Of a stretch of 32,000 nt of DNA, positions 1,526 through 28,493 are shown piece after piece. The stretch is from Candidatus Methanoperedens sp. (GTDB lineage Archaea; Halobacteriota; Methanosarcinia; Methanosarcinales; Methanoperedenaceae). The notes under the pieces are model-generated. The model was not told where the DNA came from. It did no database searches and worked only from the letters and a program-made list of their open reading frames with translations. The DNA is taken from positions 240,001 to 272,000 of the forward strand of contig JBGQBI010000003.1 of the NCBI GenBank assembly GCA_041494705.1. The letters are read 5' to 3'. The translations under genes and the position numbers were made by a program. Every line of letters begins with the position of its first letter. Position 1 is the first letter of the stretch.

Positions 1526-1626
1526 AATATTGTATTGTCCTCTATTACTAAAAAAGTTCGCTGCTTGACCTGTGATCCCAGTCGAATCAGGAAAGAATAT
1601 GTATTACAATAAACCATCTACAATAC

Positions 1627-2292: not shown

Positions 2293-2323
2293 ATATATCT
2301 TAACCAACCGCAGTTTTGCACTA

Positions 2324-3183: not shown

Positions 3184-3204
3184 ACTAAGATTAACCTTCT
3201 TGTA

Positions 3205-7171: not shown

Positions 7172-7621
7172 TTACTGTGCGCGCATGGGCTGCTGCGCCT
7201 GGTGAGCCTGTTGGTGCTTCTGTACAAGCTTCTGGATATTTTGCAATTCCTGCCCGAGTTTTGTGATTGTGCCGTTTAATTGCTCAAGATACTTGTTAAG
7301 CTCCTCTTTTTTCTTTTCAAGGAACGATTTTGCATCGTCAATATTCTTTTCGACGCTCACGCCTGCGCCAACTCCTACAACTACTTTATCCGTGCTGGTG
7401 AGAGTGGCTTTGACAAAAGAGCCGAATCCCACTGGCACAAGGGTTTCTCCTCCTGCAGGTTCGTCTTTTAAAGCTGTAATTGTCGTTAATGCGGTTTCCA
7501 CATCCCTGATGGTCAGTTTTACCATGTTTATCTGCTGGGCCAATGACTCTGCCTGATACTGGTAAACCTCGTGTTTTTCTGACAATTCCGCAAGCTGCTG
7601 TTGGGTTAACGCACCGCTCAT
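7172..7621 (-). CDS. pfdA: Prefoldin alpha subunit
   Basis: The architecture is coiled coil, beta hairpins ([24 protein letters not shown]), coiled coil. The gene sits in the conserved archaeal LX-pfdA-ftsY neighbourhood. Confidence 0.85.
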
Positions 7622-7926: not shown

Positions 7927-8772
7927 TTACCTTAAATTTGTTAAGTATTTGCTAATAGATTCTATTTTTTTAACTTCAATTGCGAACTCACCTTGAATTT
8001 TGTGCGTACTATAAAAATTAACTTTTATGTCTTGCTGTAAATAGTGCGCGTTGATAATTTCATAAATCTCTTTAATTTTTTCTGGTTTGGCATTTAAACC
8101 AAAAATAACGCCCTCTAAATCTTCTTTATTAAACTTTTTAGTATAACCTTGCACAAATTTATCCTTCAATATAGGTATCCTATATTCAGTTTCATAATCC
8201 CAATCGGAATATTTTGTTAAGATAAAATCCATTAGTTTTATATATTGTTCTTCATATAACATATTTACTATTTTGGGCTTTTCTTTATCATACTTGACAG
8301 GAAATAAAATATGTGGTATTGAGTCCAATGTTAAAAAATGTCCATTTCCTATTTTGTGTGTCCTAAAACAAAGACATATACCTTCATGATTTTCAGCATA
8401 GTGGCTCCACATTAAAATATTTAATTTTGTAGCACTAAAACAGCATACTCTATGAGGACTTTTTTCGAAAAACTCCTCACCTAATTCATTATTAATTTTG
8501 GTTCGATTTAATATATAAAAATTTTTCTTTCTTTTTATCTTCTTATCCTTTATTAACTGATTAATTTCTGATGGACGACGATTTCTTAACAAATAATTCA
8601 ACCAATCTTCTTTTGTACCTTCAAGTGTTATGTCAATTTTGCAATCAAATGGGTCATTAAAGTTTTCAGGGTCATTAAAATATAACACATTTTTTTTTAG
8701 ATTATCTTTTGTATAATCATCAATTTTCTGATATCTAAAAAATAATTTCTCCTCAGTTTCCTCTTTTTCCAT
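7927..8772 (-). CDS. DUF2971 family protein (function unknown)
   Basis: Motifs are LYFNDPENFNDPFDCK and VCCFS..LNILMWSHYAENHEGICLCF. The gene is strongly AT-rich relative to its neighbours. The track start at 8790 is TTG; I prefer the ATG at 8772. Confidence 0.7.
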   Translation of the reverse strand: MEKEETEEKLFFRYQKIDDYTKDNLKKNVLYFNDPENFNDPFDCKIDITLEGTKEDWLNYLLRNRRPSEINQLIKDKKIKRKKNFYILNRTKINNELGEEFFEKSPHRVCCFSATKLNILMWSHYAENHEGICLCFRTHKIGNGHFLTLDSIPHILFPVKYDKEKPKIVNMLYEEQYIKLMDFILTKYSDWDYETEYRIPILKDKFVQGYTKKFNKEDLEGVIFGLNAKPEKIKEIYEIINAHYLQQDIKVNFYSTHKIQGEFAIEVKKIESISKYLTNLR

Positions 8773-8923
8773 AATGAAACAATAAAGCAAGTTGAATATA
8801 TTTTTTTCTATTGAGGAAATATCAAATTTGTTAATGTTTAATTTTTTGTTAGATTCATTTTCAGGAATGTTTTAATTTACCAACCCCAAATGTAACGGTT
8901 ACTATTCTTGAAAAACCATGAAA

Positions 8924-10216
8924 TTATAAGAAGGACATTTCAAGCGCCAGCACAAGGCTTGCCCCCAGAATAGCTATGGGAGTAATAAATAATCCGATTT
9001 TCAAAAGATCAGTCATTGTCGTGCTCCATCCATATCGCCGCGCGCTTTCAAGCCAGAGAATCCCGGCAAGTGCGCCGAACGTAGTGAAATTCGCCCCGAG
9101 ATTTGAGCCTATGACCAGTGAATATCCCATTGCCGTGTTCATTTGCGAAGAAAGACCCGCGTGATGTGTTATAGATAGCATCATGGCAGTCATGGGTATG
9201 TTATTAACGAGATTGCATAAAAAAGCAGAAAAAATGGACACTGTGAAGATAGCAGCAGTCATATTACTGCTTAAATTCGAAAACAGGAATTCCCCGGCGT
9301 TATCAGCAGCTCCGCTTACCTCAATCCCTTTTACTACAATGAAAAGCCCGATAACGAAAAGCACGACATTCCATGAGACTTTCCGCAACCGCCGGATCGG
9401 GCGCCGCTCAAACAGCAGCAGGATTAAAGCGCCTCCAAATGTAACTATAGAGAGAGGTATCCCGTAATGGTTCATAAGTCCGCCAAGTAAAATAACTGCA
9501 AGCAGGACTGCCAGCCCCATGCCTACCAGGAATTTATTTTTAATTTGGGTTCTTCCATTATCCAGGGAATCAAAAGTCTCAGGTATCTGGTTCCTGAAAA
9601 TATACTTCATCAGGTAATAATTTACAAAAGCAGCGGCTAATGTCGGGAGAATCATGTATCCTGTGAAACCGAAAAAATCAAGTTTGAAGCTGTCGCCAAT
9701 CAATATATTGGTCAGGTTTCCGATATACAGCGGCATTGAAAATGTGTTTGCGGCGAAAAAAGATACATACATGTAGGGTTTCGGGTTAATGCCCGCCTTC
9801 CTGCAGAAAATAAGTATTATAGGCGTGGTGGTCAGGATAACAACGTCATTTCCAGCAAAAAGGGAAATAACCGAAACTACAAGGAAGGTATACAGGAAAA
9901 GCCGTTCCCCGCTGTTTTTTGATGCATAAATCGCCCGGGAAGCGCAGTACTCAAAGAAGCCGTAATCGTCAAGCAGGGTTGAGATTACCATCAAAGTCGC
10001 AAGTATTATGACCACGTTCCATGTAGTCACGAGCGGCTGCGGCATTTCCGTGGTCGAAATACCAAGCGCCTCAACTATGTGATGCGGCTTGAGTAAAAAA
10101 ATAATAGTAATTGCGGCGCCGATTAACGCAGCACTGGCTTCATTGATTCCTTTGGGTTTTAAGACTATCAGTGCATAAGTTAATACAAAAACAGCAATAG
10201 CCAGAATCTGACTCAA
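8924..10216 (-). CDS. ArsB/NhaD-superfamily anion permease (arsenite or citrate-type transporter)
   Basis: The protein is about 430 aa with 10-12 TM helices. Its N-terminus, AIAVFVLTYALIVLKP, is typical of this permease fold. The substrate cannot be inferred. Confidence 0.7.
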   Translation of the reverse strand: MSQILAIAVFVLTYALIVLKPKGINEASAALIGAAITIIFLLKPHHIVEALGISTTEMPQPLVTTWNVVIILATLMVISTLLDDYGFFEYCASRAIYASKNSGERLFLYTFLVVSVISLFAGNDVVILTTTPIILIFCRKAGINPKPYMYVSFFAANTFSMPLYIGNLTNILIGDSFKLDFFGFTGYMILPTLAAAFVNYYLMKYIFRNQIPETFDSLDNGRTQIKNKFLVGMGLAVLLAVILLGGLMNHYGIPLSIVTFGGALILLLFERRPIRRLRKVSWNVVLFVIGLFIVVKGIEVSGAADNAGEFLFSNLSSNMTAAIFTVSIFSAFLCNLVNNIPMTAMMLSITHHAGLSSQMNTAMGYSLVIGSNLGANFTTFGALAGILWLESARRYGWSTTMTDLLKIGLFITPIAILGASLVLALEMSFL

Positions 10217-10649: not shown

Positions 10650-13097
10650 ATGACAGACTACAAGGAATTCATATTTAAAAACCTCTACAGGGTGGATGGT
10701 TATCGCGCATACTTCCCACGCAACAACCCGACTTTTAATAATCCGGGATTCGAAGATGCACAACTGAGGGTGCTGATTGTCAGGCTGTCCCCATTTCCGA
10801 ATATCCGTGAATCCATAACCCATCATTTCCTGTTCCAGGAAGCCAGAAGGGCACTACCTTATGCGTATATTGATTATGCCTTTTTCCCTAACCCGAAGAA
10901 CATCCCGCTTTTTGTCGATAACAATATACCGTTTTTCCTGGGCATTCAATCGCTTCGCTCGATGTCGGATTTCGACCTCGTGCTTGTATCTAATTCTTTC
11001 ACTCTTGAGTTATTCAACCTGCCTTACCTTTTTATGAACACGGGAATTCCTGCAACTAAAAAAGAAAGGAGGCCGGTCAGGCCTATCGTTGTCATGGGCG
11101 GCTCAAATGCGCTTATGGCGCAGTGTGCGATTTCTCCTGAAGGTGACTCGTTTGTCGATGCCCTCTTCTTCGGGGAAGGCGAAGGCTCTGTGCAAAAAAT
11201 CGTATCTATAATAAACGAAAAAAAGGATTGTCCTAAATCAGAATTACTTAGAATTCTTGAGAAAGAGATACCCGGTTTCTTTGATATCAGGCTCGACATC
11301 CCTGAAAGCGCATGTGCCGCACCTCCGAAAGCTCCTCTCGCTTCGCATATCCTTACCGATTATCCCATACTGAACACCGATATCGAAAATACCGCAAAAC
11401 TCCAGATTACACAGGGCTGTTCTTGCTTTTGCTCTTTCTGTTTTGAAGGATATACGAGAAAACCTTTCAGGGAGTATGCGCCTCAGGATATACTGGAAAA
11501 GGCGCTTGAAGTAAAAACAAAACATTCTCCAACAGAATTTGATTTCCTGAGTTTTAATTTCAACATGCACACAGGAATATCGCGGATTATAGCCGACTTA
11601 AACGAAGTAGCCAAGTTCGTGAATTTCAAAAGCCAGCGAGCCGATATAATTGCATTGCGTCCTGAGCTTCTGGATATAGAGATACTTTCAGGAAAACGGA
11701 CTTATACCATAGGCGTGGAAGGAATCAGCGACAGGATGAGACGTTATTTACACAAGAGCCTTAATGAAGAGGAACTTTTGAAGGCTCTTGAACACATATA
11801 TGCAAAAAAACCAAGGCAACTGAAATTATTCTTTATGATAACCGGACTTGAAAATGACAAGGACCTGAAAGAATTCAAGGACTTCATAATGAAGCTCAAG
11901 CGCCTGAAAATCGGGTTATCCCCGGGATGCCGGACTATTATGAGTTTCGGGCTGCTTGTGAACCTCCCGTTTACTCCGATGCAGTTTGCTCCAACCATAA
12001 AAGACCCGGACAGCATAAAACAAATAAAGGGCGATTTGAAAAGGGATTGCGAAACCAATGGTTTTGAGTTCAGGATGGCGCAGGATATGGAGGAATTCCT
12101 GGTATCACAGCATATTGCGATAGGGGGTTTTGAATGTTTTGATGTCATATCTGATTTCGCAAAAAAGGGAGGATACTTTGACGGGGAACATATAACCGGG
12201 GATAAAAATGCGCTTATTTCATCGTTGCGGTCTGCATCCGGTGAAGGATTATCCGGCGCTAAAGACGAGAACTATGTTTTTCCTTTTGAGAACTTAAGAG
12301 GCTCGCCTGCCAAATCATTTCTTTACAGGATGTATGATGAAGCGAGGAATTTCAAGGACAGCGGATATTGCCTTCTGGGAAAAGGGGAATGCATCGGATG
12401 CGGAGGCTGTGAAGACCGTAAACTTTCAAGGCTTCCCGAAGTCGGGCAGGAAGATATAGAGAGGCTCAAGAAGATTGTTGAACTGAAGAAAAAGCCAAAG
12501 ATTGCGCAGGCGGTTGTTACAGTAAAAGAGCCAGGAAGATTTCTGACCCCGGAGGCAAAATGCGCCTTTATCGGCAGGGCTGTTTTTGAGCATATACCGT
12601 CTCTTGCTAAAGATTATCTTGCTTGCAGGCAGGTGCAGAATATGCCCGCCTCGAAAGGATACGGGTTCCTGTTCGGGCGATTCCTGTACGATTTTGAGTT
12701 CATGGGTTCATCCGATGTTTTTTTAAGCTATCTTGAAAAGAACACAATCGAATCTCCGCTTTTGGGTATTTCAAGGGTTTCGGAGAAGGAAATCGGAAAT
12801 AGTTTCAGGATAACATCGGTGTGGAAAGACGTATCAAAGTACAGTTTCCAGAACAGGTTGCAGGATTTTCTGCTTGAGAATGGAATGGGGTTTGATATAA
12901 GGAAAACAGATGAAGTGACTTATTTTGAAGTTGCTGCAAAGGACAAAAAGAAGAAGCTCCTGAATTCTGCTGCGCTGCGGCAGGAAAACGGCAGCGTTTC
13001 ACTGGAGATAGAAACGGGGTCTAATTTTAGCATTGTCTCGCTGCTCAAACATCTTTTTGGGGAGGAATGGATGGATGCAAGAGTGGAATCGATTTAA
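10650..13097 (+). CDS. Large radical SAM protein with an N-terminal B12-binding-like domain and a C-terminal DUF2344-like extension; function unknown
   Basis: The CxxxCxxC cluster motif is present in QGCSCFCSFCFEGY. The 815-aa length and layout resemble the TIGR03960/TIGR03936-type fusion, as far as I remember it. Confidence 0.75.
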   Translation: MTDYKEFIFKNLYRVDGYRAYFPRNNPTFNNPGFEDAQLRVLIVRLSPFPNIRESITHHFLFQEARRALPYAYIDYAFFPNPKNIPLFVDNNIPFFLGIQSLRSMSDFDLVLVSNSFTLELFNLPYLFMNTGIPATKKERRPVRPIVVMGGSNALMAQCAISPEGDSFVDALFFGEGEGSVQKIVSIINEKKDCPKSELLRILEKEIPGFFDIRLDIPESACAAPPKAPLASHILTDYPILNTDIENTAKLQITQGCSCFCSFCFEGYTRKPFREYAPQDILEKALEVKTKHSPTEFDFLSFNFNMHTGISRIIADLNEVAKFVNFKSQRADIIALRPELLDIEILSGKRTYTIGVEGISDRMRRYLHKSLNEEELLKALEHIYAKKPRQLKLFFMITGLENDKDLKEFKDFIMKLKRLKIGLSPGCRTIMSFGLLVNLPFTPMQFAPTIKDPDSIKQIKGDLKRDCETNGFEFRMAQDMEEFLVSQHIAIGGFECFDVISDFAKKGGYFDGEHITGDKNALISSLRSASGEGLSGAKDENYVFPFENLRGSPAKSFLYRMYDEARNFKDSGYCLLGKGECIGCGGCEDRKLSRLPEVGQEDIERLKKIVELKKKPKIAQAVVTVKEPGRFLTPEAKCAFIGRAVFEHIPSLAKDYLACRQVQNMPASKGYGFLFGRFLYDFEFMGSSDVFLSYLEKNTIESPLLGISRVSEKEIGNSFRITSVWKDVSKYSFQNRLQDFLLENGMGFDIRKTDEVTYFEVAAKDKKKKLLNSAALRQENGSVSLEIETGSNFSIVSLLKHLFGEEWMDARVESI

Positions 13098-13117
13098 CCA
13101 CTGGTTTCAATGATTAG

Positions 13118-13417
13118 CTAATACGGCCGCCTCATCTGTTTTCCGCAAACCGTGCAGGTGGTTGTTATGTGCGTACCCTGAAGCCTTGTCCGCGCGGTCA
13201 CGCCTTGCACCAGATACGCATGGCAGTGTTTGCAAATCCGGTGCTTTAATTCAGGCGGCATCCTGACACGGTATCTCATCCCGATGCGGCGCGCCAGTCC
13301 AACATACCTGTTGCTGAGGTAGGGGTGGGTTTTGAATTCATGGTCTGCAAGCTCAAAAAGCAGGTGTATGCGCTCGTATGCCATGTCTTTTGCCCAGTCT
13401 TTCTGTTTTTTACGCAT
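13118..13417 (-). CDS. rnp4: RNase P protein component 4 (Rpp21/Rpr2)
   Basis: Motifs are ERIHLLFELA, YVGLARRIGMRYRVRMP and the zinc ribbon CKHCHAYL..CTVCG. Confidence 0.85.
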   Translation of the reverse strand: MRKKQKDWAKDMAYERIHLLFELADHEFKTHPYLSNRYVGLARRIGMRYRVRMPPELKHRICKHCHAYLVQGVTARTRLQGTHITTTCTVCGKQMRRPY

Positions 13418-13436
13418 AGGTAATCACAATTGTATT

Positions 13437-13571
13437 TTATTTAGCTTCTAGCTGCCAGCTCTCCCGTTCTTTTTTAATGTATTCGTCAACATCAATGTCT
13501 TCCCAGATTTCCTTACCAAGCCCTTTCAAATTTTTAAGGGATAAGGGCTTTTTGATTTCTGCTTTTTTCAT
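13437..13571 (-). CDS. Putative 44-aa orphan antitoxin-like protein
   Basis: My manual translation is MKKAEIKKPLSLKNLKGLGKEIWEDIDVDEYIKKERESWQLEAK. The C-terminal motif EYIKKERES matches EYIKKLRES in the VapB-like ORF at 16288-16464. No toxin gene follows it. Confidence 0.4.
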   Translation of the reverse strand: MKKAEIKKPLSLKNLKGLGKEIWEDIDVDEYIKKERESWQLEAK

Positions 13572-13734
13572 AATTTCATAATTTTTACTATATGGTTGTA
13601 TATTATTTTAATTTAAGCCTGATGGCTAAAGAGTGTCGTATTTGCGAATGTGAATAACGACTGTATATACAAAATTATATTTCTTTTGAGATGGAAAAGA
13701 TTTAATTAATACAGCGTTAATTAAAAAATAAATC

Positions 13735-15495
13735 ATGAAATTATCTGAAATCAAGGAGAAATTGAAGAGAAATGAATGGATACTTCCACCTTTTCAACGG
13801 GAATTTGTATGGAACGAAGAGCAAAAAATAATTGAATTTATAGAATCTGTTTTTCATGAATGGCCAATAGGTACTATAATCCTTTGGAAGCCTGATCCTA
13901 AGGATGAGGCTATAATTAAAAAACGGAATTTACAAATCTCATCTGGTGGAAAACCCGACGGTGCTCAAGAATATGTAATCGATGGTCAACAAAGGATAAC
14001 TACTCTGTTAAAAATATTAAATAATGAGCCATTTATTTTTAACGATAAACAATATATAATTTTTTATGATTTCTCATCGAAAAAATTTGTTTTTATGGAA
14101 GCAAATGATTTACAAGAAAATGTTCACTCTAAGCGGGAAAGGGCGCTCCGCAAGATAAAAGCTTCTTACAGGCGCAAGACGCACCGGTGCGTGAAGAAGG
14201 GCGTGGAGTACGAATACACCTACTGGCACAGGATAAAACCTGACGGCGGTCTTGAGTCTGTGGGGAAAGAGGAGCCTGATTGGAACGAAATCATCAAGCA
14301 GAAATATGATATGCTCATGGAACAGAAGGACTACGATAATAACCGAATCTTAGTGGGAGATATAATCAATCTAAAACATTCAGAAATAAAAGACAGATTG
14401 AAACAGAAGAACTTCAATTACAATATAGACGATCTTATAGACGAAATAAAGAAAATAAGTGAGTACGATATTACTATCCAAAGACCGAATAAACCAATAT
14501 TCTTAAAAGATGCTCTAGAATTATTTATTCGATTAAATACTGGTGGAAAACAATTACCTTCTGAAGACTTAGCACTAGGTTATATTTCATTATTATGGGA
14601 AGATTCGCGAGATGAATTTAAGAATTTTAAAGAGTCGCTTAAGGCAACAGGATTTGATTTTGACTTAGATTTTTTCGTCAGATGTTTATCGGCAGTATCA
14701 CTAAATCAAAGTCTTACACAAAAATTAATAAGGTCATTTAAAACAGAAACCATAAAGAAGGATTGGGAGCTAACAAAAAATGGTATAGAAGAAACAATAG
14801 ATTTTTTGAAAACCATGAAATTGAATAGTAACCATTTTTTAGAAGCTGAAAACTCTCTGGTACCTATTGTTTTAATATTTAGTAAAAAAGAAGGCGCAGT
14901 AAAAAATAAAATGAATCTTTTTTATTGGTTTTTAATATCATACATTAATCAACGATTTAGTGATCAATCAGCGGGTATTTTGAATAAGGATATTAAAACT
15001 ATCCTCGAATCTAGCGATCCTATTAATGAATTAATTAAGAATTTAGAAGACGAAAGGTCGATTTTTATCACAACATCTAAAGACATAAAAGGAAACCAAT
15101 TTAAGTTCGTTCTTTATTGTTTACTGAAAGATTCAAACACACGTGATTTTGTTTCAGGTTTTGGTATAGATACCTTAACAGCCAGTAAATCAAATCGATT
15201 AGATTTCCATCATATTTTTGCGGATTCTCTCTTGAAAAATTCGGATTTTAAAGATAAAAAAGAAGATATAGCTAACAAAACTTTTCTTACAAATAATTCA
15301 AATAAAAAATTAAGCGATTCCCATCCAACCTATTTATCAGAATATTCTAAAGAATTATTGAAGGCACATTTTATCCCGACAGATGATAGATTGTATAAAT
15401 TAGAGAAATACGAAGAGTTCTTAGAAGAAAGGAAAAAATTAATAAGCGAGGGGTTAAATAAATTTTTGAATGAACTTAGAACAAGCACCATATAA
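13735..15495 (+). CDS. DUF262 (ParB-like NTPase/nuclease) plus DUF1524 (His-Me finger) protein; GmrSD-like type IV restriction candidate
   Basis: N-terminal motifs are ILPPFQREFVW..FIESVFHEWPIGTIILW and DGQQRITTL. C-terminal motifs are RLDFHHIFADS..NKTFLTNNSNKKLSD. The gene is very AT-rich except for a GC-rich patch at about 14131-14335. Confidence 0.8.
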   Translation: MKLSEIKEKLKRNEWILPPFQREFVWNEEQKIIEFIESVFHEWPIGTIILWKPDPKDEAIIKKRNLQISSGGKPDGAQEYVIDGQQRITTLLKILNNEPFIFNDKQYIIFYDFSSKKFVFMEANDLQENVHSKRERALRKIKASYRRKTHRCVKKGVEYEYTYWHRIKPDGGLESVGKEEPDWNEIIKQKYDMLMEQKDYDNNRILVGDIINLKHSEIKDRLKQKNFNYNIDDLIDEIKKISEYDITIQRPNKPIFLKDALELFIRLNTGGKQLPSEDLALGYISLLWEDSRDEFKNFKESLKATGFDFDLDFFVRCLSAVSLNQSLTQKLIRSFKTETIKKDWELTKNGIEETIDFLKTMKLNSNHFLEAENSLVPIVLIFSKKEGAVKNKMNLFYWFLISYINQRFSDQSAGILNKDIKTILESSDPINELIKNLEDERSIFITTSKDIKGNQFKFVLYCLLKDSNTRDFVSGFGIDTLTASKSNRLDFHHIFADSLLKNSDFKDKKEDIANKTFLTNNSNKKLSDSHPTYLSEYSKELLKAHFIPTDDRLYKLEKYEEFLEERKKLISEGLNKFLNELRTSTI

Positions 15496-15510
15496 TTTCT
15501 GACAATATAA

Positions 15511-15807
15511 CTATAAACCTCGCATAATTACATCCCCCACCGTAAACGCCAGCATACTCAAACTCACCGCCGCATTCACATTAAAGAACGCCACAGGAAT
15601 ATTCTCAAAATTATCAGCCTTCACAAGCGTATGCTCATACCATATCAGCGCCGCAATAACCACCAGCCCCGCCTTAAAAACAACCCCAAGCCTCAGCACG
15701 AACATCAACCCAACAAGCAGCGTCAGCATCAAGACGTGCGCCGCAAACGATAGACTGAGCGCCGCCGTGACACCGAACACAGACAGCACGGATAAAACCA
15801 CCTTCAA
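15511..15807 (-). pseudogene. Displaced 3' fragment of a ubiA-type prenyltransferase gene
   Basis: The last 80 or so codons (LSLSFAAHVLML..LIWYEHTLVKADNFENIPVAFFNVNAAVSLSML) are near-identical to the C-terminus of the intact ubiA at 16547-17425. The fragment has no N-terminal two-thirds and only a TTG-started stub. Confidence 0.8.
15530..15777. repeat. Direct repeat copy 1 (ubiA 3' end)
   Basis: It aligns without gaps to 16560-16807 at a constant offset of 1030 bp. I counted about 15 mismatches in the first 220 bp or so, including a 46 nt identical run. Similarity decays toward the inner end. Confidence 0.85.
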
Positions 15808-16301
15808 AACATTTCAGTTTTAATTTTATTATAGATTTGAGGGAAATATTCTTGCAAGAATTTTTCTGGAGTATGAGCCCCAGTATTAATGCTCTCCACC
15901 AACTGCATGAAATCACTGTCTCTGCTTACAAGAGAAACAGAGTCAATCGATTGAATTATGCTCAATCCAATTGCATCGAAAGGGTCAAAGGGATACTCTT
16001 CCTGTAATTTATTTGCAGAAAGCAAATCAATAGAATCTGGAATTTCAATACTGATATTCGAATACACATCAGTTATGAAGCCTTTGATTTTTGCTTCTGG
16101 ATATTTCATTTTTCTTCGTAAAACGAATCTTATTTCAAACACATTAGTCATTGCAGTGAAAGCCGTAACCTTTTTTGCCTCAACCAGTTTCATTATTTCA
16201 TAAGGGCATCGCCATAACTTAAATCCTGAATTTTTATCGACCTCTTTTGCTATCCAGTTAATCAAAACGTCAGTATCCAGAAATATCCTAGGTTTTTCCA
16301 T
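15804..16301 (-). CDS. vapC: PIN-domain toxin (VapC-like ribonuclease)
   Basis: Motifs are IFLDTDVLINW near the N-terminus, DPFDAIGLS, and SRDSDF near the C-terminus, which supply the PIN acidic residues. Confidence 0.85.
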   Translation of the reverse strand: MEKPRIFLDTDVLINWIAKEVDKNSGFKLWRCPYEIMKLVEAKKVTAFTAMTNVFEIRFVLRRKMKYPEAKIKGFITDVYSNISIEIPDSIDLLSANKLQEEYPFDPFDAIGLSIIQSIDSVSLVSRDSDFMQLVESINTGAHTPEKFLQEYFPQIYNKIKTEMF

Positions 16302-16464
16302 AACAGCTTTCTCTCAACTTTTTAATGTATTCGGTACTGGTTATTCCTTCTGGAACTACTCCCTCAAATGCACCAAGCCATCTATCCGCAAAATCCTTTT
16401 TGGTTTTTGCTTTAGTTTCTATGCTCTCCAGGGCTTTAATCAATTTTTCAAGCATTACAGGCAT
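16288..16464 (-). CDS. VapB-like antitoxin (58 aa)
   Basis: My manual translation is MPVMLEKLIKALESIETKAKTKKDFADRWLGAFEGVVPEGITSTEYIKKLRESCYGKT. Its stop overlaps the vapC start by 14 nt, the classic TA arrangement. Confidence 0.6.
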   Translation of the reverse strand: MPVMLEKLIKALESIETKAKTKKDFADRWLGAFEGVVPEGITSTEYIKKLRESCYGKT

Positions 16465-16546
16465 TTTTTCACCATATGAATCATGTGCAGAATAGTATAT
16501 AATGTTTTGTTTTAAATTTTAATCAATGTATATGAAGAAATAACGT

Positions 16547-17425
16547 TCAAACCGTCATCACATCCCCCACCGTAAACACCAGCATACTCAAACTCACCGC
16601 CGCATTCACATTAAAGAACGCCACTGGAATATTCTCAAAATTATCCGCCTTCACAAGAGTATGCTCATACCATATCAACAATGCAATAACCACCAGCCCT
16701 GCCTTAAAAACACCCCCGAGCTTCAGCACAAACATCAACCCGACAAGCAGCGCCAGCATCAAGACATGCGCCGCAAACGACAATCCGAGCGCCTTCTTCA
16801 CCCCGAATATCGTCGGCACTGAATAAAGCCCCTCTTTTTTATCAAAATCAAGGTCCTGAAGCGAGTATATCATATCAAATCCAGCTACCCACAAAGTAAC
16901 CGCGAAAAGCAAAAGCAGCATCGCAAGTTCAGGCGCGCCGAATGGGATATTGAATAGACCAGTCACCGCAATCCAGCCCCCTACTGGAGCATAACCGAGA
17001 TTAAGCCCGAGGACGAAATGCGAGATTGGTGTAAACTTTTTAAGATACGGATAGATGACCGACGTAACCAGAATGACAGGCGAAAGCGCAAAGCACAGCG
17101 GATTTAGCTTGTAAGCTGAATAGAAAAGCAGGACATAGGAAATCAGGATTATTCCCCATACCTCATACAACTTTATTCTTCCTGACGGCAATTCGCGATT
17201 CGCAGTTCTCGGATTTTTCGCATCTATATCCCTGTCAACCAGATTATTCAGTGCCATTGCAGCGCTCCTCGCGCCTATGAATGCAAGCCCGACCCAGAAA
17301 AGAATGCGAAGTTCAGGAACCCCCCTGCTCGCAAGGAAAGCGCCAAGATATGCAAATGGGATAGCGAACAGGCTGTGCTTGAGAACCACAAAATCAGCGT
17401 ATAATTTAAGTTTTTGAAGCATCAC
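16547..17425 (-). CDS. ubiA: UbiA-family aromatic prenyltransferase (4-hydroxybenzoate polyprenyltransferase-like)
   Basis: The first Asp-rich motif is NNLVDRDIDAKNPRTANRELPSG and the second is YSLQDLDFDKKEG. About 8-9 TM helices are predicted. Confidence 0.85.
   Translation of the reverse strand: MMLQKLKLYADFVVLKHSLFAIPFAYLGAFLASRGVPELRILFWVGLAFIGARSAAMALNNLVDRDIDAKNPRTANRELPSGRIKLYEVWGIILISYVLLFYSAYKLNPLCFALSPVILVTSVIYPYLKKFTPISHFVLGLNLGYAPVGGWIAVTGLFNIPFGAPELAMLLLLFAVTLWVAGFDMIYSLQDLDFDKKEGLYSVPTIFGVKKALGLSFAAHVLMLALLVGLMFVLKLGGVFKAGLVVIALLIWYEHTLVKADNFENIPVAFFNVNAAVSLSMLVFTVGDVMTV
16560..16807. repeat. Direct repeat copy 2 (3' end of the intact ubiA)
   Basis: This is the partner of 15530-15777, in the same orientation. 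Confidence 0.85.
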
Positions 17426-17466
17426 AAATCTTTTCTCTTATCACCGATATTATCACCCTGATACAA

Positions 17467-18231
17467 ATGATTAACCTTTACTTTATCGGCTCGGCAGGGA
17501 GCGGCAAATCCTCGCTAACAGGCGCATACATGGGATGGATGCAGAACCAGGGGTATGATGCGATTACGGTGAACCTTGACCCGGGCATTGAAAACGCGCC
17601 TTACGTTCCTGATGTGGACATCCGGGACTGGATAAAATTGCGCGACATTATGAAAGAGCATGGTGTAGGACCAAACGGGGCGCAGATTATTGCGGCGGAT
17701 ATGCTCGCCCTGAATATTAATGAAATGAAGGAGATAATCGAAAGCTTTGAAACAGAATACGTCATATTTGACACTCCGGGACAGATGGAATTATTCGTGC
17801 TGCGGCAATCTGGAAAATACCTGATCGATGCTTTTGGCGCAGATAAGTCGATAATCGGCTTTCTTTACGACCCTGTAATTTCAAGAAATCCGTCAGGCTT
17901 CATCTCATTGATGCTTCAGGCAGCTTCTGTCCAGGTGAGGTTCAACGTGCCTTTCCTCAATATTCTCACAAAATCCGATCTGCTTTCAGAGGAAGAACGC
18001 GGGAAAATATCGGGCTGGAGCAGGGATTTAATGGCACTTGACGACGCAATCAACAGCGAACGGCCCACATTGCGAAGCCAGTTGAGCATTGAGTTTCTGT
18101 CTGCCCTTAAATCATTTGGCGCAAGCCAGGATATAATTCCTGTATCATCGACTTATGGTTCTGGCATGGAAGATATTTACAATGCAGCACAGCAGATATA
18201 TTTTGGAGGCGAAGATTTGAGCAGGGATTAA
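17467..18231 (+). CDS. GPN-loop GTPase
   Basis: Motifs are the P-loop GSAGSGKSS, the GPN loop HGVGPNGA, and DTPGQMELF. Confidence 0.85.
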   Translation: MINLYFIGSAGSGKSSLTGAYMGWMQNQGYDAITVNLDPGIENAPYVPDVDIRDWIKLRDIMKEHGVGPNGAQIIAADMLALNINEMKEIIESFETEYVIFDTPGQMELFVLRQSGKYLIDAFGADKSIIGFLYDPVISRNPSGFISLMLQAASVQVRFNVPFLNILTKSDLLSEEERGKISGWSRDLMALDDAINSERPTLRSQLSIEFLSALKSFGASQDIIPVSSTYGSGMEDIYNAAQQIYFGGEDLSRD

Positions 18232-18270
18232 GGTGTTAACATAATATAAATTCCAGACGCATGTGTGCCC

Positions 18271-18840
18271 TTAAGAAGGAGACGCACGATTTACATGAAT
18301 CTGTCTAACCTTTGCCGTGCTGAAGGATTTATCCATCAAGTCGCCGATGAGCACAAAAAGTTCGATCAGCAGCAGGAATATAAAAATCACCGAGGAAGCA
18401 GATGGCGGTTGAATACCGTTAGCTGCCATCAGGTTCGCACGTATTGCCATTACGCCTCCTATGAACAACGCAAACAGGAAGCCATTAATTGTCCAGTATG
18501 CATTTTTTCCCCAGGAAAGACGCCATACGAGGAACAGTATTAGGAAAGTGAACCATATCTTAATGCTGATAACACCATTCCCGCCTGAGGTAACGTACAT
18601 GAAGCGGATAACCGGGTTAACTTCCTCCGTGACCCCCCTTATTTGCATCATGTAAGCTGAGGATATCCCATCGCCAACGCCAAATGTCAGAAATGATAAT
18701 ACAAATAAAAGCCTTTGGAGGTTTGTTACGGTTAGAAAGTATTTTATTGGCAGGAGAAATATATCGGCAAATGGGATAGGGTCAGGTTTTTTCTGTTTGT
18801 CTAAAACTTCCCCTGTAAGCGTTTTCTGTACTGTTTTCAT
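18271..18840 (-). CDS. Membrane protein, possibly DUF5658-like
   Basis: Four to five TM helices and a GDGISSAYMM...EEVNPVIRF segment are present. It overlaps the upstream DUF835 gene by 4 nt. The family call is tentative. Confidence 0.5.
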   Translation of the reverse strand: MKTVQKTLTGEVLDKQKKPDPIPFADIFLLPIKYFLTVTNLQRLLFVLSFLTFGVGDGISSAYMMQIRGVTEEVNPVIRFMYVTSGGNGVISIKIWFTFLILFLVWRLSWGKNAYWTINGFLFALFIGGVMAIRANLMAANGIQPPSASSVIFIFLLLIELFVLIGDLMDKSFSTAKVRQIHVNRASPS

Positions 18841-21966: not shown

Positions 21967-22059
21967 CGTTACGGGAATATATAAATATGCCGTTACGGGA
22001 TTTTGTGGATTAAATTCCGTTACGGAATATGCACTATATGCACTAATTCCGTTACGGAA
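21967..22059. promoter_or_regulatory. Palindrome array A: four copies of CGTTACGG / TTCCGTTACGGAA
   Basis: Cores lie at 21967-21974, 21991-21998, 22018-22025 and 22050-22057. A tandem 9-bp duplication, tatgcacta, lies at 22028-22045 between copies 3 and 4. The array sits in the divergent intergenic region between the ubiD operon and the RCC1 operon. Confidence 0.8.
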
Positions 22060-22163
22060 TATGTAATTTTAAGACGATAACTTTTTATGCCTTTAATTAA
22101 TAGTTGACAAATCCCAGACTTTACTCAAATCCTCGGATTGGAGTATTGAAAAACGGTGAAAAA

Positions 22164-24371
22164 ATGGAAATTAAAAACGTTTACAGAGGGCGCGCCCTCA
22201 GGATAGCGGCAGGAATTTTGGTGATGGTTTTGTTGTTGACGGGAGGCGCGGGGGCGAAAGGCGTGGATGTTGTGGCAATAGCGCCTGCAACAGCTACACA
22301 GCCCGCATTGAGTGTTACTGTGACTCCAAGCACTTTAACAGCAGGCACAACTACACTTGTGACCTTCACGGTGACCAGTAAGATGGGTGCAGTGGTAAGC
22401 GGCGCAGCAGTCACCCTGACCGGCGCAGCCTCAGGCAGCGGGACTACAAATGCTAACGGCGCAGTAACCCTGACCGTGAATACCGCAAATGCAGGCACAA
22501 TAACGGCAACAGCGAGTAAGACAGGATTCATAAGCGGCAGCACGACCATAACCGCAACAGTGCCTGCGGTGGCAGTGTATATGCCGGTGTATATTAGTGC
22601 AATAGCCCCTGCGGCGACAGAAGTATGGGCGTGGGGAAGTAATTCCAACGGTCAGCTGGGAGACGGCACAACCACCCAGAGTTTATCCCCGGTTAAGGTA
22701 AGCGGGCTTACAGGTACCATAACAGCCATTGCCGCCGGTTATGACCATACTGTTGCCCTGAAGAACGACGGGACGGTATGGGCGTGGGGAAATAATGTGC
22801 TGGATCCGGCATGCGTCGGTACATTCGGTTGGCAGTGTGCTGGAGACGGCGCACACCCTCAGAGTTCATCCGCGGTTCGGGTAAGCTGGACTACAGGTAT
22901 TTTTACACCTGTAAGTTCGCTTACAGGCGTAAAAGCCATTGCCGTCGGTCAAGTACATACTGTTGTCCTGAAGAACGACGGTACTGTATGGGTATGGGGA
23001 GATAATAACGCCGGTCAGCTGGGAGACGGCTTAACCTATCCGATGTTCGGAGGAGCGGGTTACCCCGTTTCGAGTTCATCCCCGGTACAGGTAAGCGGGC
23101 TTACAGGTATAACAGCCATTGCCGCCGGTAATTACCATACTGTTGCCCTGATGAACAACGGTACGGTCTGGGCGTGGGGAAGTAATTCCTACGGTCAGCT
23201 GGGAGACGGCACAACTACTAATAGATTTACCCCGGTTAAGATAAGCGGGCTTACAGGTATAACAGCCATTGCCGCCGGTGAAACACATACTGTTGCCCTG
23301 AAGAACGATGGTACGGTATGGGCATGGGGAGATAATGGCTACGGTCAGCTGGGAGATGGCACATTCACCTCCCAGAGATTATCCCCGGTTCAGGTAAGCG
23401 GGCTTACAGGTATAACAGCCATTGCCGCAGGTGGAATAGATACTGTTGCCCTGAAGAACGACGGGACGGTATGGGCGTGGGGAGATAGGGTGATGTCCCC
23501 GGTTCAGGTAAGCGGGCTTACAGGTATAACAGCCATTGCCGCAGGTGGAACAGAAACCGGTGGAACACATGCTGTTGCCCTGAAGAACGACGGCACGGTA
23601 TGGGCGTGGGGATATAACGACTACGGTCAGTTGGGAGATAACACAACCATTGGTAAGAAATCCCCGGTTCAGGTAAGCGGGCTTACAAACGTAAAAGCCA
23701 TTGCAGCAGGTGGTTACCATACTGTTGCCCTGAAAGGTTCTCCTCCAACATTGAGCGTGAGTACAATCCCGGATACAACAGCAGGCACACCTGCAAGCGT
23801 GACCTTCACCGTGACGGGCGCCGGCTCTCCTGTAAGCGGCGCAACAGTCACCCTGATCGGCGCAGCCTCAGGCAACGGAACAACAGATGCAAGCGGCAAA
23901 GTTAACATAACCGTGAACGCCACCGGTGCAGGCACCATAACAGCCACAGCAGGAAAGACAGGGTTCACAGACGGAAGCACAACCATAACCGCAACAGCCC
24001 CTGCCACCACCGCAACCACACCTACAGTTACACCTGCAATAACCCCCCCAACAGGCAGCGCAACCCCCACCATCGTAACCCTTCAGGGAAAACTCACCGA
24101 CAGCGCAGGAAATCCTGTCCAGACAGGAAGCATGAACATCACAATCACCGACTCCTCAGGCGTGCAGGTATGGCAGGAAACCTTTAACGATGTCATAGAC
24201 AACGGTGTGTTCAATATTCCGCTGGGAGCTATACACGAACTCAGGCTTCTATCCGGCAGCATATACAATATGAAAGTGGCGATCGATACCAAATCCAAAA
24301 CATTCTCAACCGTTGACGTTACCTTCGGAGAAAATTTACTTGAGGGCGATGTGATAAAGTTCAAGGCGTAG
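22164..24371 (+). CDS. Secreted RCC1-repeat (beta-propeller) protein flanked by Ig-like domains
   Basis: I trimmed the start to the ATG at 22164, which follows GGTGA. The signal/TM segment is [22 protein letters not shown]1-like units of the form VWAWGxNxxGQLGDGT..[17 protein letters not shown]..HTVAL are repeated. Two similar Ig-like modules ([25 protein letters not shown]) lie before and after the propeller. Confidence 0.85.
22620..23745 (+). repeat. Intragenic tandem repeats of about 150 bp (RCC1 blades) with long identical DNA cores
   Basis: The core (a/g)taagcgggcttaca occurs six times. In several copies it is followed by an identical ggtataacagccattgccgc. Confidence 0.85.
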
Positions 24372-24373
24372 GC

Positions 24374-24721
24374 ATGCCCCGAATGCTATTCCTGCTTCTT
24401 GTTGCAGCCGTCGTAAGCTCTGGCTGCGTGGCAGAAAAAAAGGCGGGGCTAAATGAGAGCCTGCTTGATATCGCCTCCCATGAGCCCGAGGTAAGCTCGT
24501 TCATCGCCCAGAACCCTGATGCCCATCCTGATATTACAGCTCTTGCGCCTGAGACTATCGCGCAGTTATCGAAAAAGTATCCTGCGCTCTACGGCAGCCT
24601 GCCAAACAAGACGCTATATAAGCTCGAATACAAGGGCGAAAGGGGATTGCTTGTGATTGTTGACCTTGAGAATAAAAAGGTGCTGAAGTATTTCAGGACT
24701 GCCGGGGTGAGTTTGCAATGA
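24374..24721 (+). CDS. Small secreted protein or lipoprotein, function unknown
   Basis: The signal peptide has a lipobox-like LLLVAAVVSSGC. The start lies 2 nt after the RCC1 stop, and the ORF overlaps the YVTN gene start by 4 nt. Confidence 0.6.
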   Translation: MPRMLFLLLVAAVVSSGCVAEKKAGLNESLLDIASHEPEVSSFIAQNPDAHPDITALAPETIAQLSKKYPALYGSLPNKTLYKLEYKGERGLLVIVDLENKKVLKYFRTAGVSLQ

Positions 24722-26937
24722 TGAGGAAACTGAAATATGCAGTCCTTTTTTTAATAGTCATATCCTGTTTGGGTCAGGTATCAAGCGCGGCGCCATTTGC
24801 ATATATCACGAACTCTGGTAGCAACAACGTATCTGTAATAGACACGGCAACTGACACTGTTACAGCCACTGTGGAGAATGTAGATATCAGCAGTCCTTAT
24901 GCCGTTGCAGTGAACCCCACAGGAACAAAGGTATACGTGACGAACTCTGGCAGCAACACCGTCTCTGTAATTGACACAGCAACAAACAATGTTACAGCCA
25001 CCGTGCCTGTAGGAAGCCATCCTTATGCCGTTGCAGTGAACCCTAATGGAGCATGGGTATACGTGGCTAACGAGAACAGCAACAACGTATCTGTAATTAA
25101 CACAACAACTAACAGTGTTACAGCCACGGTGAATGGATTATGCATGCCTGAGGGAGTTGCAGTGAACCCCACAGGAACAAAGGTATACGTGACGAGTGGT
25201 GAATGTAGCGAGGTCTCTGTAATTGACACAGCAAATAACACTGTTACATCCACGGTGAATGTAGACAGTTATGGAGTAGCAGTGAACCCTAATGGAGCAT
25301 GGGTATACGTGACTAACGGTTACTCTAGCGGCAGAGTCTCGGTAATTAACACAACAACAAACACTGTTAAAGCCACGGTGAATGTAGGAAGCTATCCCTG
25401 GGGGGTTGCAGTAAACCCGACGGGGACAAAGGTATACGTGGCGAACTCTCACAGCAACACCGTCTCTGTTATTGACACAGCAAATAACACTGTTACAGAT
25501 ACGGTGGATGTAGGAAGCAGTCCTTATGGAGTTGCAGTAAACCCGACGGGGACAAAGGTATACGTGGCGAACCAAGTCAGCAACACCGTCTCTGTTATTG
25601 ACACAGTCACAAACACTGTTACAGACACGGTGAATGTAGGAAGCATTCCTGTCGCTTTTGGTCAGTTTATAACGGATACTACTCCGCCTGCAAGCGTTAC
25701 CAGCCTGGCAAACATCAGCTATGCATCAAACTATATCAACTGGACATGGACTGACCCCACGGATTATGATTTGTCCGGGGTAATGGTATATCTCAATGGA
25801 ACCTTCCAGACCAACGTTACTAAAGGTACGCAGCATTACAATGCAATAGGACTTAGCGCCAATACTTCTTATGAAATAAGTACACGCACTTTTGATAATT
25901 CAGGGAATATCAATCAGAGCTGGGTGAATCATACATCAAGGACAGCAGACGCTGATACCACGCCGTCTGCCAGCATCACGAACCTTACGGCCGGAAGCAT
26001 TGGGCAAACATACATAAACTGGACATGGACTGACCCCTCGGATTCGGATTTTTCTAAAGTAATGATATACCTGAACGGAGTATCCAAACCAGACGTGTTA
26101 AAAGGTGTGCAGTATTACTATGCAGGAGGACTTAGCGCCGATACTGATAATGTAATAAGTACACGCACTGTTGATAATTCCGGGAATATCAATCAGAGCT
26201 GGGTGAATCTCACATCAAGAACAACTCGGGTAACATCATCGGGCGGAAGCAGCGGTGGATATTATCCGCCTCCGACTGCCACGGCGACTGCTACAGCGAC
26301 CCCTACTCCGACGACGACTGCGCCAGTACTTCTATTGAAAACGATAACAGTCTCGCCATCGAATACATCAATTGTTGTAAATAATACAAAGACATTCACA
26401 GCATCAACATATGACCAATTCGGCAACCCGATCACCATTGTAGTGAGCTGGAGCAGCAGCAACAACTCGGTGGGCACAATTGATGCAGCCGGCGTATTTA
26501 CGGCATCAGCCCCAGGAAAAGCTACAATAACCGCAAGAAGCGGAGATGCCAGCGGGACTGCCATAGTAACCGTGACACCTGCAATGGGTTATCGTATATG
26601 GTTGTTAACGCCCCTTATATTCTCTGACATATCGCAAGTAAAAGGCTACAAAATGAGTTTTATTGCAAATCCAACTACATCGGGTTTTTCAAGAGCAGTA
26701 GGGAACTATAAAATCTCTCTAAACCTCTACAGTAGTGGTGTAGGTGGCGTATATAACAATAACAGGTACAAACTTTATCTTGTTCCTGTTCAGGCGCACA
26801 TCTCTTATTCCAATGGTATTACCGTGAATGACCCGATAACCCAGGCTCCCATAAAATCGTTTTTTTTAAATTATATATCTACCAAGATAGATAACTTGTT
26901 AAGAACGGTTGTAAATCTAATCAATTCTGTCATTTGA
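24718..26937 (+). CDS. Secreted YVTN-family beta-propeller repeat protein with two FN3-like modules, a Thr/Pro linker and a Big_2-like Ig domain
   Basis: A signal peptide is present. About 13 units of the form VAVNPTGTKVYVTNSGSNTVSVIDTATNTV occur. Two INWTWTDP modules follow, then PPPTATATATATPTPTTT, then TITVSPSNTSIVV..VSWSSSNNSVGTIDAAGVFTA. Confidence 0.85.
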   Translation: MMRKLKYAVLFLIVISCLGQVSSAAPFAYITNSGSNNVSVIDTATDTVTATVENVDISSPYAVAVNPTGTKVYVTNSGSNTVSVIDTATNNVTATVPVGSHPYAVAVNPNGAWVYVANENSNNVSVINTTTNSVTATVNGLCMPEGVAVNPTGTKVYVTSGECSEVSVIDTANNTVTSTVNVDSYGVAVNPNGAWVYVTNGYSSGRVSVINTTTNTVKATVNVGSYPWGVAVNPTGTKVYVANSHSNTVSVIDTANNTVTDTVDVGSSPYGVAVNPTGTKVYVANQVSNTVSVIDTVTNTVTDTVNVGSIPVAFGQFITDTTPPASVTSLANISYASNYINWTWTDPTDYDLSGVMVYLNGTFQTNVTKGTQHYNAIGLSANTSYEISTRTFDNSGNINQSWVNHTSRTADADTTPSASITNLTAGSIGQTYINWTWTDPSDSDFSKVMIYLNGVSKPDVLKGVQYYYAGGLSADTDNVISTRTVDNSGNINQSWVNLTSRTTRVTSSGGSSGGYYPPPTATATATATPTPTTTAPVLLLKTITVSPSNTSIVVNNTKTFTASTYDQFGNPITIVVSWSSSNNSVGTIDAAGVFTASAPGKATITARSGDASGTAIVTVTPAMGYRIWLLTPLIFSDISQVKGYKMSFIANPTTSGFSRAVGNYKISLNLYSSGVGGVYNNNRYKLYLVPVQAHISYSNGITVNDPITQAPIKSFFLNYISTKIDNLLRTVVNLINSVI
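25684..26232 (+). repeat. Tandem duplication of a 279-bp (93-aa) FN3-like module
   Basis: The string aactggacatggactgacccc occurs at 25738 and 26017. Long shared stretches include ataagtacacgcac..gataattc.gggaatatcaatcagagctgggtgaatc. Confidence 0.8.
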
Positions 26938-27134: not shown

Positions 27135-27226
27135 GCCGTACGGAAATTTAATAAATATATCCCGTTACGGTATTTACTAAATAAAAAATCCGTTACGGGA
27201 TAATCCGCCGAACATTCCGTAACGCA
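27135..27226. promoter_or_regulatory. Palindrome array B: four copies, one of which lacks the central base
   Basis: The copies are gccgtacggaa at 27135-27145, cccgttacgg at 27161-27170, tccgttacggga at 27189-27200 and ttccgtaacgca at 27215-27226. Spacings are 26-28 bp. The array lies directly 3' of the recombinase gene. Confidence 0.8.
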
Positions 27227-27234
27227 ATATAAAT

Positions 27235-28295: not shown

Positions 28296-28493
28296 TTCCG
28301 TAACGGAATTGTTCAAAGAATTTACTGTAACGGATTTTATTTGCTAAACCCCGTTACGGAATGATTAAGAGTCCAAAATACATGATGGATTATTGGAAAT
28401 GCATAATAATAAAGTCTATGAGTTTTTTCCGTAACGGGAATTTTGGCATTTAATTGCGTAACGGGAATTCTCTAATAAAATTGCGTTACGGAT
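28296..28493. promoter_or_regulatory. Palindrome array C: six copies arranged 3+3 around an AT-rich spacer
   Basis: Cores start at 28299, 28326, 28352, 28430, 28458 and 28484, giving spacings of 27, 26, 78, 28 and 26 bp. The extended consensus is roughly AATTYCGTWACGGRAATT. The array lies between the divergent xerA and dut genes. Confidence 0.8.

Follow-up and report, generated by a model that had tools for sequence, protein, structure and literature searches.

Insertion with long target duplication is a mode of gene gain described for bacterial restriction–modification gene complexes by Furuta, Abe & Kobayashi (Nucleic Acids Res 2010, PMC2853133), in a study that cites and extends Nobusato et al. 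2000. The inserts reported there have no mobility genes and are flanked by direct repeats of more than 30 bp (46–420 bp), which are single copy in the empty-site genome, often overlap the 3′ end of a gene and in most listed pairs are 93–100% identical. Type IV restriction systems are among the cargo, the proposed cycle consists of insertion, use of the repeats and release, and no archaeal case survived the authors' screen (PMC2853133). Here we analyse a locus in the archaeon Candidatus Methanoperedens, contained in a window of 32,000 nt (positions 240001–272000 of contig C3, JBGQBI010000003.1) from a source genome of 2.06 Mb in 6 contigs (G000). The end of ubiA, a prenyltransferase gene, is present here twice in direct orientation, on either side of a vapBC-type toxin–antitoxin cassette. 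The reading that we favour, at a probability of about 0.62, is that this cassette of ~0.75 kb was inserted at the stop-codon end of ubiA with duplication of the last ~277–300 nt of the gene and without an integrase, within a hotspot between ubiA and the gene for RNase P subunit Rpr2, in a single old event whose two repeat copies later served as recombination anchors.

Insertion with long target duplication is the closest described kind. In both cases, a small addiction or defence module without transposase or integrase is flanked by repeats far longer than the target duplications of transposons; the repeat is single in relatives that have no insert, and it overlaps the 3′ end of a neighbouring gene. 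At the present locus the direct repeats measure 277 nt (87% identity), the insert is shorter than 20 kb, and there is no integrase or transposase in or beside it. Type IV restriction cargo also has its counterpart, in the adjoining GmrSD gene. The locus differs from the bacterial cases in that the cargo at ubiA is of toxin–antitoxin type II rather than a complete restriction–modification system, that the host is archaeal, and that the repeats are allelic versions of one another at 87% identity. The ubiA site is furthermore a hotspot for several kinds of cargo, with modules stacked behind one copy of the gene end after another, and within this one genome the pattern is met at many loci.

The gene order GPN GTPase, ubiA, Rpr2 and radical-SAM gene is kept in the genus, and ubiA loci were compared across about 25 genus genomes (G-numbers denote genomes, L-numbers fetched loci or assemblies). 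The locus is made up as follows, in window coordinates, with lengths of proteins in amino acids (aa):

17467–18231 (+), GPN-loop GTPase (PF03029), the conserved core gene of the left flank, syntenic in all relatives.
16547–17425 (−), UbiA-family polyprenyltransferase (MqnP-like), intact, 292 aa, with its 3′ end duplicated (PF01040, 3.4e-57; TIGR01475).
16557–16833 (−), repeat copy 1 (DR1), made up of the final 277 nt of functional ubiA, from repeat search and MAFFT alignment.
16465–16546 (−), spacer from the ubiA stop to the antitoxin start, including the upstream region that belongs to the cassette; conserved in G063 and G005.
16288–16464 (−), antitoxin-like gene, 58 aa, overlapping the start of the PIN gene by 14 nt, assigned from position, size and pairing with PIN.
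15804–16301 (−), PIN-domain toxin, VapC-like and 165 aa long (PF01850 at 27.2 bits, cutoff 23.6).
15527–15803 (−), repeat copy 2 (DR2), the 3′ stub of ubiA (open reading frame (ORF) 15511–15807, 98 aa), from the same search and alignment and apparently mosaic.
15549–15594 (−), perfect run of 46 nt, within a block near-invariant across genus orthologues, from orthologue comparison.
13735–15495 (+), GmrSD-type gene (type IV restriction, DUF262 N-terminal domain; PF03235, 9e-25), low in GC and convergent with the stub.
13437–13571 (−), 44-aa C-terminal remnant of a 79-aa AbrB/SpoVT-type VapB, the full gene of which is found in G053 and G064.
13118–13417 (−), RNase P subunit Rpr2 (PF04032; synteny), the conserved right border of the hotspot, adjoining ubiA in empty-site genomes.

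The two copies of the ubiA end are offset by 1030 nt from start to start and identical at 241 of 277 positions. Their BLAST E value of 1e-93 means that the pair is not due to chance. No indel interrupts the 277 nt, and a 3-nt indel appears only past ...GGGGATGT, in the last codons. Identity drops inward from the gene terminus. An earlier note on this DNA, which was made from the sequence alone and gave the repeat as about 250 bp, had already described the offset, the freedom from indels, the inward fall of identity and the perfect run of 46 nt, the longest between the copies; each of these holds at the full extent. The block that contains the perfect run is also kept in orthologues from genomes without an insert, empty sites included, and the run is probably identical because of this conservation at the nucleotide level throughout the genus, not because it is the core of an attachment (att) site. 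A second ubiA end is present in only three of 49 genus genomes (G000, G010 and G063), and 42 of the 45 genomes with a match have a single end.

Between the copies, ORF and Pfam analysis finds only the PIN-domain gene and the overlapping 58-aa gene upstream of it, as the note had proposed, and the stub ORF that it marked at 15511–15807 exists; the TTG start of this ORF overlaps the PIN stop as TTGA. The PIN protein has 55 homologues at E ≤ 1e-20 in a protein search, and acidic residues, read by eye from the translation, are present in its motifs FLDTDVL, FEIRF, DPFDAIG and SRDSDF. The 58-aa gene has no match in Pfam or NCBIfam and is called a putative antitoxin on the grounds of location, size and a constant partnership with PIN, which extends over at least eight assemblies and is kept in G052, G023, L080, L081, L082, L163 and L164. 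In G000 it stops at a TAG where relatives have CAG, giving 58 aa against 64 aa. With a PIN toxin and a small, overlapping upstream partner, the cassette is a predicted type II toxin–antitoxin system of VapBC type. Its GC content is 0.34, compared with 0.44 for the genome and 0.47 for ubiA; that of the block 13430–15510, with the GmrSD gene and the 44-aa ORF, is 0.31.

The PIN stop meets the ubiA-like stub at the identical position in G000 and in three other, independent assemblies, L082 (JGI), L163 (Logan) and L164 (NCBI). The junction thus arose once, is not recent and is not an assembly artefact, an outcome that the note had left to be checked; the same three loci are further occurrences of this vapBC with ubiA-like ends. 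In L082 the end of the antitoxin gene is followed by PIN (90%), by a stub ORF of 98 aa that overlaps in the same way (TTGA), by a gene of 129 aa and by Rpr2; L163 contains the ubiA end, antitoxin, PIN and the stub start, and L164 contains the antitoxin, a broken PIN gene and the stub. L080 has the ubiA end, antitoxin and PIN, with no stub. In G063, ubiA is followed by the antitoxin (95% aa), by no more than ~40 nt from the start of PIN, by the stub and by other cargo, and in G005 by the antitoxin and a PIN remnant, with no stub. The PIN gene of G063 and G005 is deleted beyond its first ~40 nt and the antitoxin is intact (L054 11828–12022; L058 5756–5950); loss of the toxin with retention of the antitoxin is the order of decay expected for an addiction module.

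The cassette has diverged to the same degree as the core genes around it, at 89.5% identity between G000 and G063 against 88.5% for the GPN gene, and at ~81% between G000 and G005 against 79.5% for the 5′ part of ubiA, which makes the insertion old. The cassette has probably been inherited vertically, with several losses. A recent transfer of the cassette between G000 and G063, considered on account of sliding-window identities of 88–97%, was dropped, the full-length value being 89.5% against 88.5% for the core gene. Members of the same cassette family (73–77% aa) occur at unrelated loci of G052, G023 and L081 without ubiA-like flanks, and nucleotide homology with these loci (blastn) spans only window positions 16512/16522–15841. 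This speaks against the suggestion that the cassette carries ubiA homology as its own vehicle. In G052, the cassette lies after an 89-nt duplicate of the tail of a GatB-like gene.

Two of these unrelated loci have repeats of their own. At L060 (contig C125 of G052), positions 2220–2308 and 3237–3325 form an 89-nt, 84% identical duplicate of a GatB/Yqey-like tail that encloses a 177-aa ORF, and the vapBC homologue lies directly behind the stub; this is the same stacking rule as at ubiA, with another core gene and in another species. At L081 (GCA_014132295.1, a groundwater assembly), three repeat copies (5542–5708, 6537–6662 and 7201–7369) bracket the vapBC homologue (77% aa) and set it apart from the gene that follows; they are 126–172 nt long, local and unrelated to ubiA.

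The interval between ubiA and Rpr2 is where the genomes differ. The two genes lie 12–420 bp apart in G004, G011, G018, G008 and G023, in which the repeat is single and the insert is missing. They are empty sites. The earlier reading of the duplicated end as the scar of an insertion into the 3′ terminus of a protein-coding gene is supported. Closer relatives carry different cargo in nearly every ubiA–Rpr2 gap:

G019, a 1256-aa ORF with no Pfam match.
G015, G053 and G048, PD-(D/E)XK-type pairs.
G058, an HNH-like protein.
G059, an 810-aa membrane/Ig protein.
G010, G064 and G048, MNT/HEPN-like pairs, named from sequence without a family search.
G053 and G064, an AbrB–PIN pair adjoining Rpr2.
G010, an ATPase_2/DUF234 protein together with GmrSD.

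No integrase is found in about 20 ubiA–Rpr2 islands of relatives, and variable cargo without an integrase makes this interval an integrase-free hotspot for toxin–antitoxin and defence genes. Its boundary lies within the last codons of ubiA, since the UbiA C-termini of all compared genomes diverge directly after ...TVGDV. Cargo also differs behind the shared stub, being GmrSD in G000 and the 129-aa gene followed by Rpr2 in L082. GmrSD lies directly after a ubiA stub in G010 too, and is an older cargo module of the hotspot. At the other edge, a full VapB and a 138-aa PIN gene adjoin Rpr2 in G053 (L052 5454–5693) and G064 (L056 10208–10447). The 44-aa remnant in G000 shares a similarity of 30 nt with the gene for the 58-aa antitoxin and the motif EYIKK.RES with its product, and is a putative second, decayed toxin–antitoxin pair. 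The ATPase cargo of G010 was not met in other contexts among the loci compared.

Variable and defence hotspots between conserved core genes exchange their content by homologous recombination in the flanks, as in the core defence hotspots of Pseudomonas aeruginosa. The ubiA–Rpr2 interval is alike in having conserved flanks, content that differs in almost every species, no mobility genes, and signs of recombination between lineages in the flank that adjoins the island. It differs in that the flank is duplicated inside the island, which creates internal anchors and a route to precise deletion.

In G001 (L036, contig C30 of that genome), the Rpr2/radical-SAM block is inverted relative to ubiA (894–3656 against 9212–10090), and the core genes FtsY, prefoldin and an ArsB/CitMHS-like transporter lie between the inverted block and ubiA. 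The arrangement points to a rearrangement that has one of its breakpoints inside the hotspot.

The stub differs from DR1 at 33 of 264 nt, 17 of the differences being synonymous and 16 nonsynonymous (ratio of nonsynonymous to synonymous divergence, dN/dS, 0.27). The ratio is 0.15 for the stub against G001 and 0.06–0.40 for pairs of orthologues. Whole-stub dN/dS was tried as a test of decay and set aside, 16 nonsynonymous against 17 synonymous changes being ambiguous between the two models. Pairwise identities of the 3′ segments, which are short, mosaic and homogenised at synonymous sites, do not resolve which copy is ancestral; the origin of the stub was instead judged from the positions of private substitutions and from physical linkage. 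In 29 of the 33 differences the state of the stub is present in functional ubiA genes of other species. The remaining four are found in the stub alone; each of them is nonsynonymous and lies within the stub's first 77 nt, a clustering with a chance of ~0.007 by our own arithmetic, (77/264)^4. A neutrally decaying self-copy of that age should be badly degraded, which the stub is not, and it is therefore not a decayed self-copy.

Compared with the stub of G010, the left part of the G000 stub has 31 differences in 101 nt (69% identity) and the right part 20 in 189 nt (89.4%; Fisher p = 4e-5). The GmrSD genes of the two genomes differ at 99 of 1761 nt (94.4% nucleotide and 93% amino acid identity), and their core genes are 87–89% identical. 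The two stubs end alike, in ...RGL*, and GmrSD lies downstream of each, the order in G010 being ubiA, ATPase, stub (frameshifted, with a TGA) and GmrSD. We read the stub as a mosaic, in which the left ~75–100 nt would be the old, decaying part of the original duplication and the right ~190 nt a functional-like allele. This right part looks like the recently retired functional ubiA end of another lineage, which may have come in along with GmrSD by recombination anchored in the stub. The state before insertion, a complete ubiA with the ending ...RGL beside GmrSD, was not found in a scan of metagenome contigs with GmrSD, and among 49 genus genomes the gene is found in G010 only. The exact stub protein has no record in public gene calls.

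The functional gene itself is a regular member of its family. UbiA scores 311.6 bits against TIGR01475 ubiA_other (cutoff 180.8), with MqnP models below their cutoffs, and orthologues are present in 44 of 48 other genus genomes. DR1 is 93.2, 92.8 and 93.7% identical to clade-A G019, G015 and G053, against 93.7, 92.7 and 92.4% for the 5′ part. The functional end is thus about as close to the nearest relatives of G000 as the rest of the gene and appears native, with a certainty limited by the short, mosaic segment. The earlier note had taken this end for a replacement brought by an element and the stub for the displaced native end. That the two ends are distinct stands, as allelic versions rather than a gene and its decayed self-duplicate; their polarity appears to be the reverse, with a native-looking functional end and a stub whose right part appears to come from another lineage.

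Between clades, synonymous divergence (pS) is 0.16–0.23 over ubiA nt 739–864, against 0.40–0.58 over nt 1–600. The last 126 nt of the gene (nt 739–864, window 16547–16688) thus have a pS 2–2.5 times lower than the upstream part. Nonsynonymous divergence of the gene end is not reduced (0.066 against 0.079 for clade A and clade C). The simplest reading of the low pS is repeated recombination between lineages, in which the gene end would travel with the neighbouring cargo.

The same architecture is found elsewhere in G000. Self-BLAST of the genome gives many local direct repeats of 85–280 nt, 83–96% identical and 0.5–1.4 kb apart, with no pair above 97% identity. ORF and Pfam analysis identifies at least eight other small cassettes bracketed by such repeats, with DUF4258, MazF, MNT, PIN, DUF433/DUF5615, Fic, Bro-N, HepT–MNT and Yip1 as cargo. 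The bracketed cassettes and the repeats around them are:

Contig C5, cassettes at 53278–54252, 130067–131280 and 109245–110704.
Contig C1, cassettes at 226495–227687, 114007–116041, 437185–438237 and 13064–15610.
Contig C4, cassette at 53099–54279.
Around a DUF4258 pair, the 5′ end of CobB/CbiA, 180 nt.
Around MazF, the 3′ end of TldD, 85 nt.
Between MNT and an antitoxin–PIN pair, which they separate, three copies of ~130 nt.
Around DUF433/DUF5615, the 3′ end of the FeThRed/rubredoxin gene, 162 nt.
Around Fic, Bro-N, HepT–MNT and Yip1, other repeats.

Where the neighbouring gene is identified, one repeat copy is its head or tail (the CobB, TldD and FeThRed/rubredoxin loci), and like architecture is seen in G052, with the GatB tail, and in L081. 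The repeats of 10 loci have no k-mer in common beyond what shuffled sequences give, which argues against a single site-specific recombinase. The note had regarded a target other than a tRNA gene as unusual; in this genome it is not, given the other cassettes bracketed by tails or heads of neighbouring genes. An RNA element or tRNA as the insertion target at ubiA was rejected, there being no Rfam match in 12500–18500 and no tRNA in the window.

The one tyrosine recombinase gene in the window (27235–28071, −; 278 aa; PF00589 with an N-terminal SAM-like domain) lies 10.4 kb away. It is single-copy and 79–97% identical in 17 of 18 genus genomes searched, usually lies within 3–7 kb of ubiA, and is syntenic with ubiA even at empty sites; three other Methanosarcinales families that were sampled gave no match at E ≤ 1e-20. 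A ~53-nt repeat with paired CCGTTACGG palindromes occurs around it in four copies (21978–22030, 27178–27230, 28312–28364 and 28417–28469). The recombinase and these repeats could be a Xer-like enzyme with its sites, or the repeats could be the binding sites of a regulator.

Elsewhere in the window, positions 22104–26937 (+) encode two large repeat proteins, of 755 aa (RCC1 repeats) and 739 aa (beta-propeller/Big_2), with strong internal DNA repeats. A DUF2971 gene (7927–8790, −), with prefoldin on one side and an ArsB/CitMHS-type transporter on the other, is a candidate for a further small insertion.

In the reading that we favour, the vapBC cassette would have been inserted at the end of ubiA once and long ago, and both copies of the gene end would then have anchored ordinary homologous recombination with DNA of related lineages. 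In G000, the right two-thirds of the stub and everything downstream of it would have been replaced by the functional ubiA end of another lineage together with its neighbour GmrSD, so that the copies are now 87% identical alleles instead of a gene and its decayed duplicate. Recombination from copy to copy, we infer, would excise the cassette precisely, with one intact ubiA as the result; this would account for the patchy distribution of the cassette among species. The first insertion could have come about through one-sided homology with an illegitimate join, through entry of a circle by a single crossover, or through duplication at a staggered break or by template switching. One-sided entry of this kind is known as homology-facilitated illegitimate recombination, which reportedly takes place in naturally transformable bacteria and, to our knowledge, has never been shown in archaea. 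One anchor and an illegitimate join would give what is seen at ubiA, namely a donor-type gene end, the insert and a leftover resident end. The ubiA junction differs in being too old for microhomology to be judged.

Several points weigh against this reading. The event of first insertion is not reconstructable, the molecular routes just named fitting the data equally well, and vertical descent with many losses is not cleanly separable from lateral spread of the cassette. The proportion of nonsynonymous changes in the stub (16 of 33) lies between the purifying and the neutral expectation, and the mosaic reading rests on four private changes. The low pS of the gene end could stem instead from an unrecognised function at the nucleotide level, though there is no Rfam match. 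A third copy of the ubiA end is not found beyond GmrSD, nor near Rpr2 in G010 and G063, where local alignment is no better than with shuffled sequences; without a distal copy beyond GmrSD, not every cargo module is bracketed by repeats.

Of the other explanations, a self-propagating mini-circle of 1030 bp comes nearest. It would consist of a ubiA end and vapBC, be excised by recombination between the repeats and re-enter by Campbell-type crossover at the ubiA end of another host; the cassette would thus spread by gene-end homology, the second of the two options in the note. Insertion by a single crossover gives exactly this structure, with a unit length equal to the 1030-nt offset; the same vapBC/stub junction precedes different downstream cargo in G000, L082 and G063; allelic copies are to be expected if donor and recipient differed; and no local pair of repeats in the genome exceeds 97% identity. 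We nevertheless consider such a circle unlikely, because vertical descent suffices where the cassette diverges in step with the core, because the cassette family also occupies loci without ubiA homology, which homology alone cannot found, and because the left parts of the stubs of G000, G063 and L082 are not especially alike. The decayed integrative element, the other option of the earlier note, fares worse. An integrase, since lost or acting in trans, would have targeted the 3′ end of ubiA, the element's attachment site attP would have supplied a replacement end, and the stub would be the displaced native end at the right-hand site attR. The layout is formally attL, cargo and attR with a perfect run of 46 nt, the cargo has a GC of 0.34 in a genome of 0.44, and a tyrosine recombinase gene lies 10.4 kb away. 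Yet neither a tyrosine nor a serine integrase is found at an end of the insert, about 20 islands at this site in relatives lack one throughout, and the nearby recombinase is a genus-conserved, single-copy gene that stands beside empty sites as well. The perfect run lies inside a block that is invariant in all orthologues, those of insert-free genomes included, at least eight other loci show the same pattern with unrelated repeats of 85–180 nt and no common motif, and the functional end looks native rather than element-supplied, all of which makes such an element very improbable.

There is next to no room for a chimeric assembly, or for the view that the ubiA end was duplicated in tandem on the spot and then diverged. 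In their favour, the copies have the same orientation, lie close together and are free of indels; but the states of other species' functional alleles make up 29 of the 33 differences, with four private, three other assemblies, made independently in different projects, have the same junction, the intervening DNA is foreign in composition, and the same cassette occurs at other loci. We regard both as effectively refuted.

The recurrence of the pattern raises a wider proposal, which we put forward tentatively and hold to be possible rather than likely. Methanoperedens might have a general, integrase-free cassette system that uses the first or last 60–300 nt of core genes as attachment-like anchors, in which small toxin–antitoxin and defence cassettes would be inserted with duplication of the tail and come to be stacked behind one tail copy after another. 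Recombination within the tails would exchange them between species, and recombination from tail to tail would excise them precisely. Integron arrays and clusters of attC sites lacking integron-integrases (CALINs) are similar in consisting of small, promoter-poor cassettes, often toxin–antitoxin genes, that are stacked, separated by repeats and variable in content among close relatives. They differ in that the ubiA array has no adjacent integrase, neither IntI nor any other, that arrays are anchored here at many different genes, and that the repeats are tails of local core genes, coding sequence without a motif common to the loci, instead of structured attC hairpins. If the proposal is true, the system would be a functional archaeal analogue of the integron that depends on the machinery of homologous recombination or on a dedicated, unrecognised factor, and the ubiA locus would be its largest and best-resolved example.

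How chromosomal toxin–antitoxin and small defence genes move without a mobility gene is a long-standing open question. The ubiA locus offers an unusually complete natural series, comprising empty sites, an ancient shared junction, toxin-deleted derivatives (G063 and G005), varied cargo behind one tail copy, a stub read as mosaic and a drop of pS at the gene end. The series argues that gene ends serve as recombination anchors for the gain, exchange and precise loss of cassettes. It would extend insertion with long target duplication, so far a matter of bacterial restriction–modification genes, to toxin–antitoxin cassettes and to archaea, in a genus that is biogeochemically important for its anaerobic oxidation of methane. 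Duplicated gene tails, moreover, may be imported alleles and not scars of self-duplication, which matters for the annotation of pseudogene fragments in metagenome-assembled genomes.

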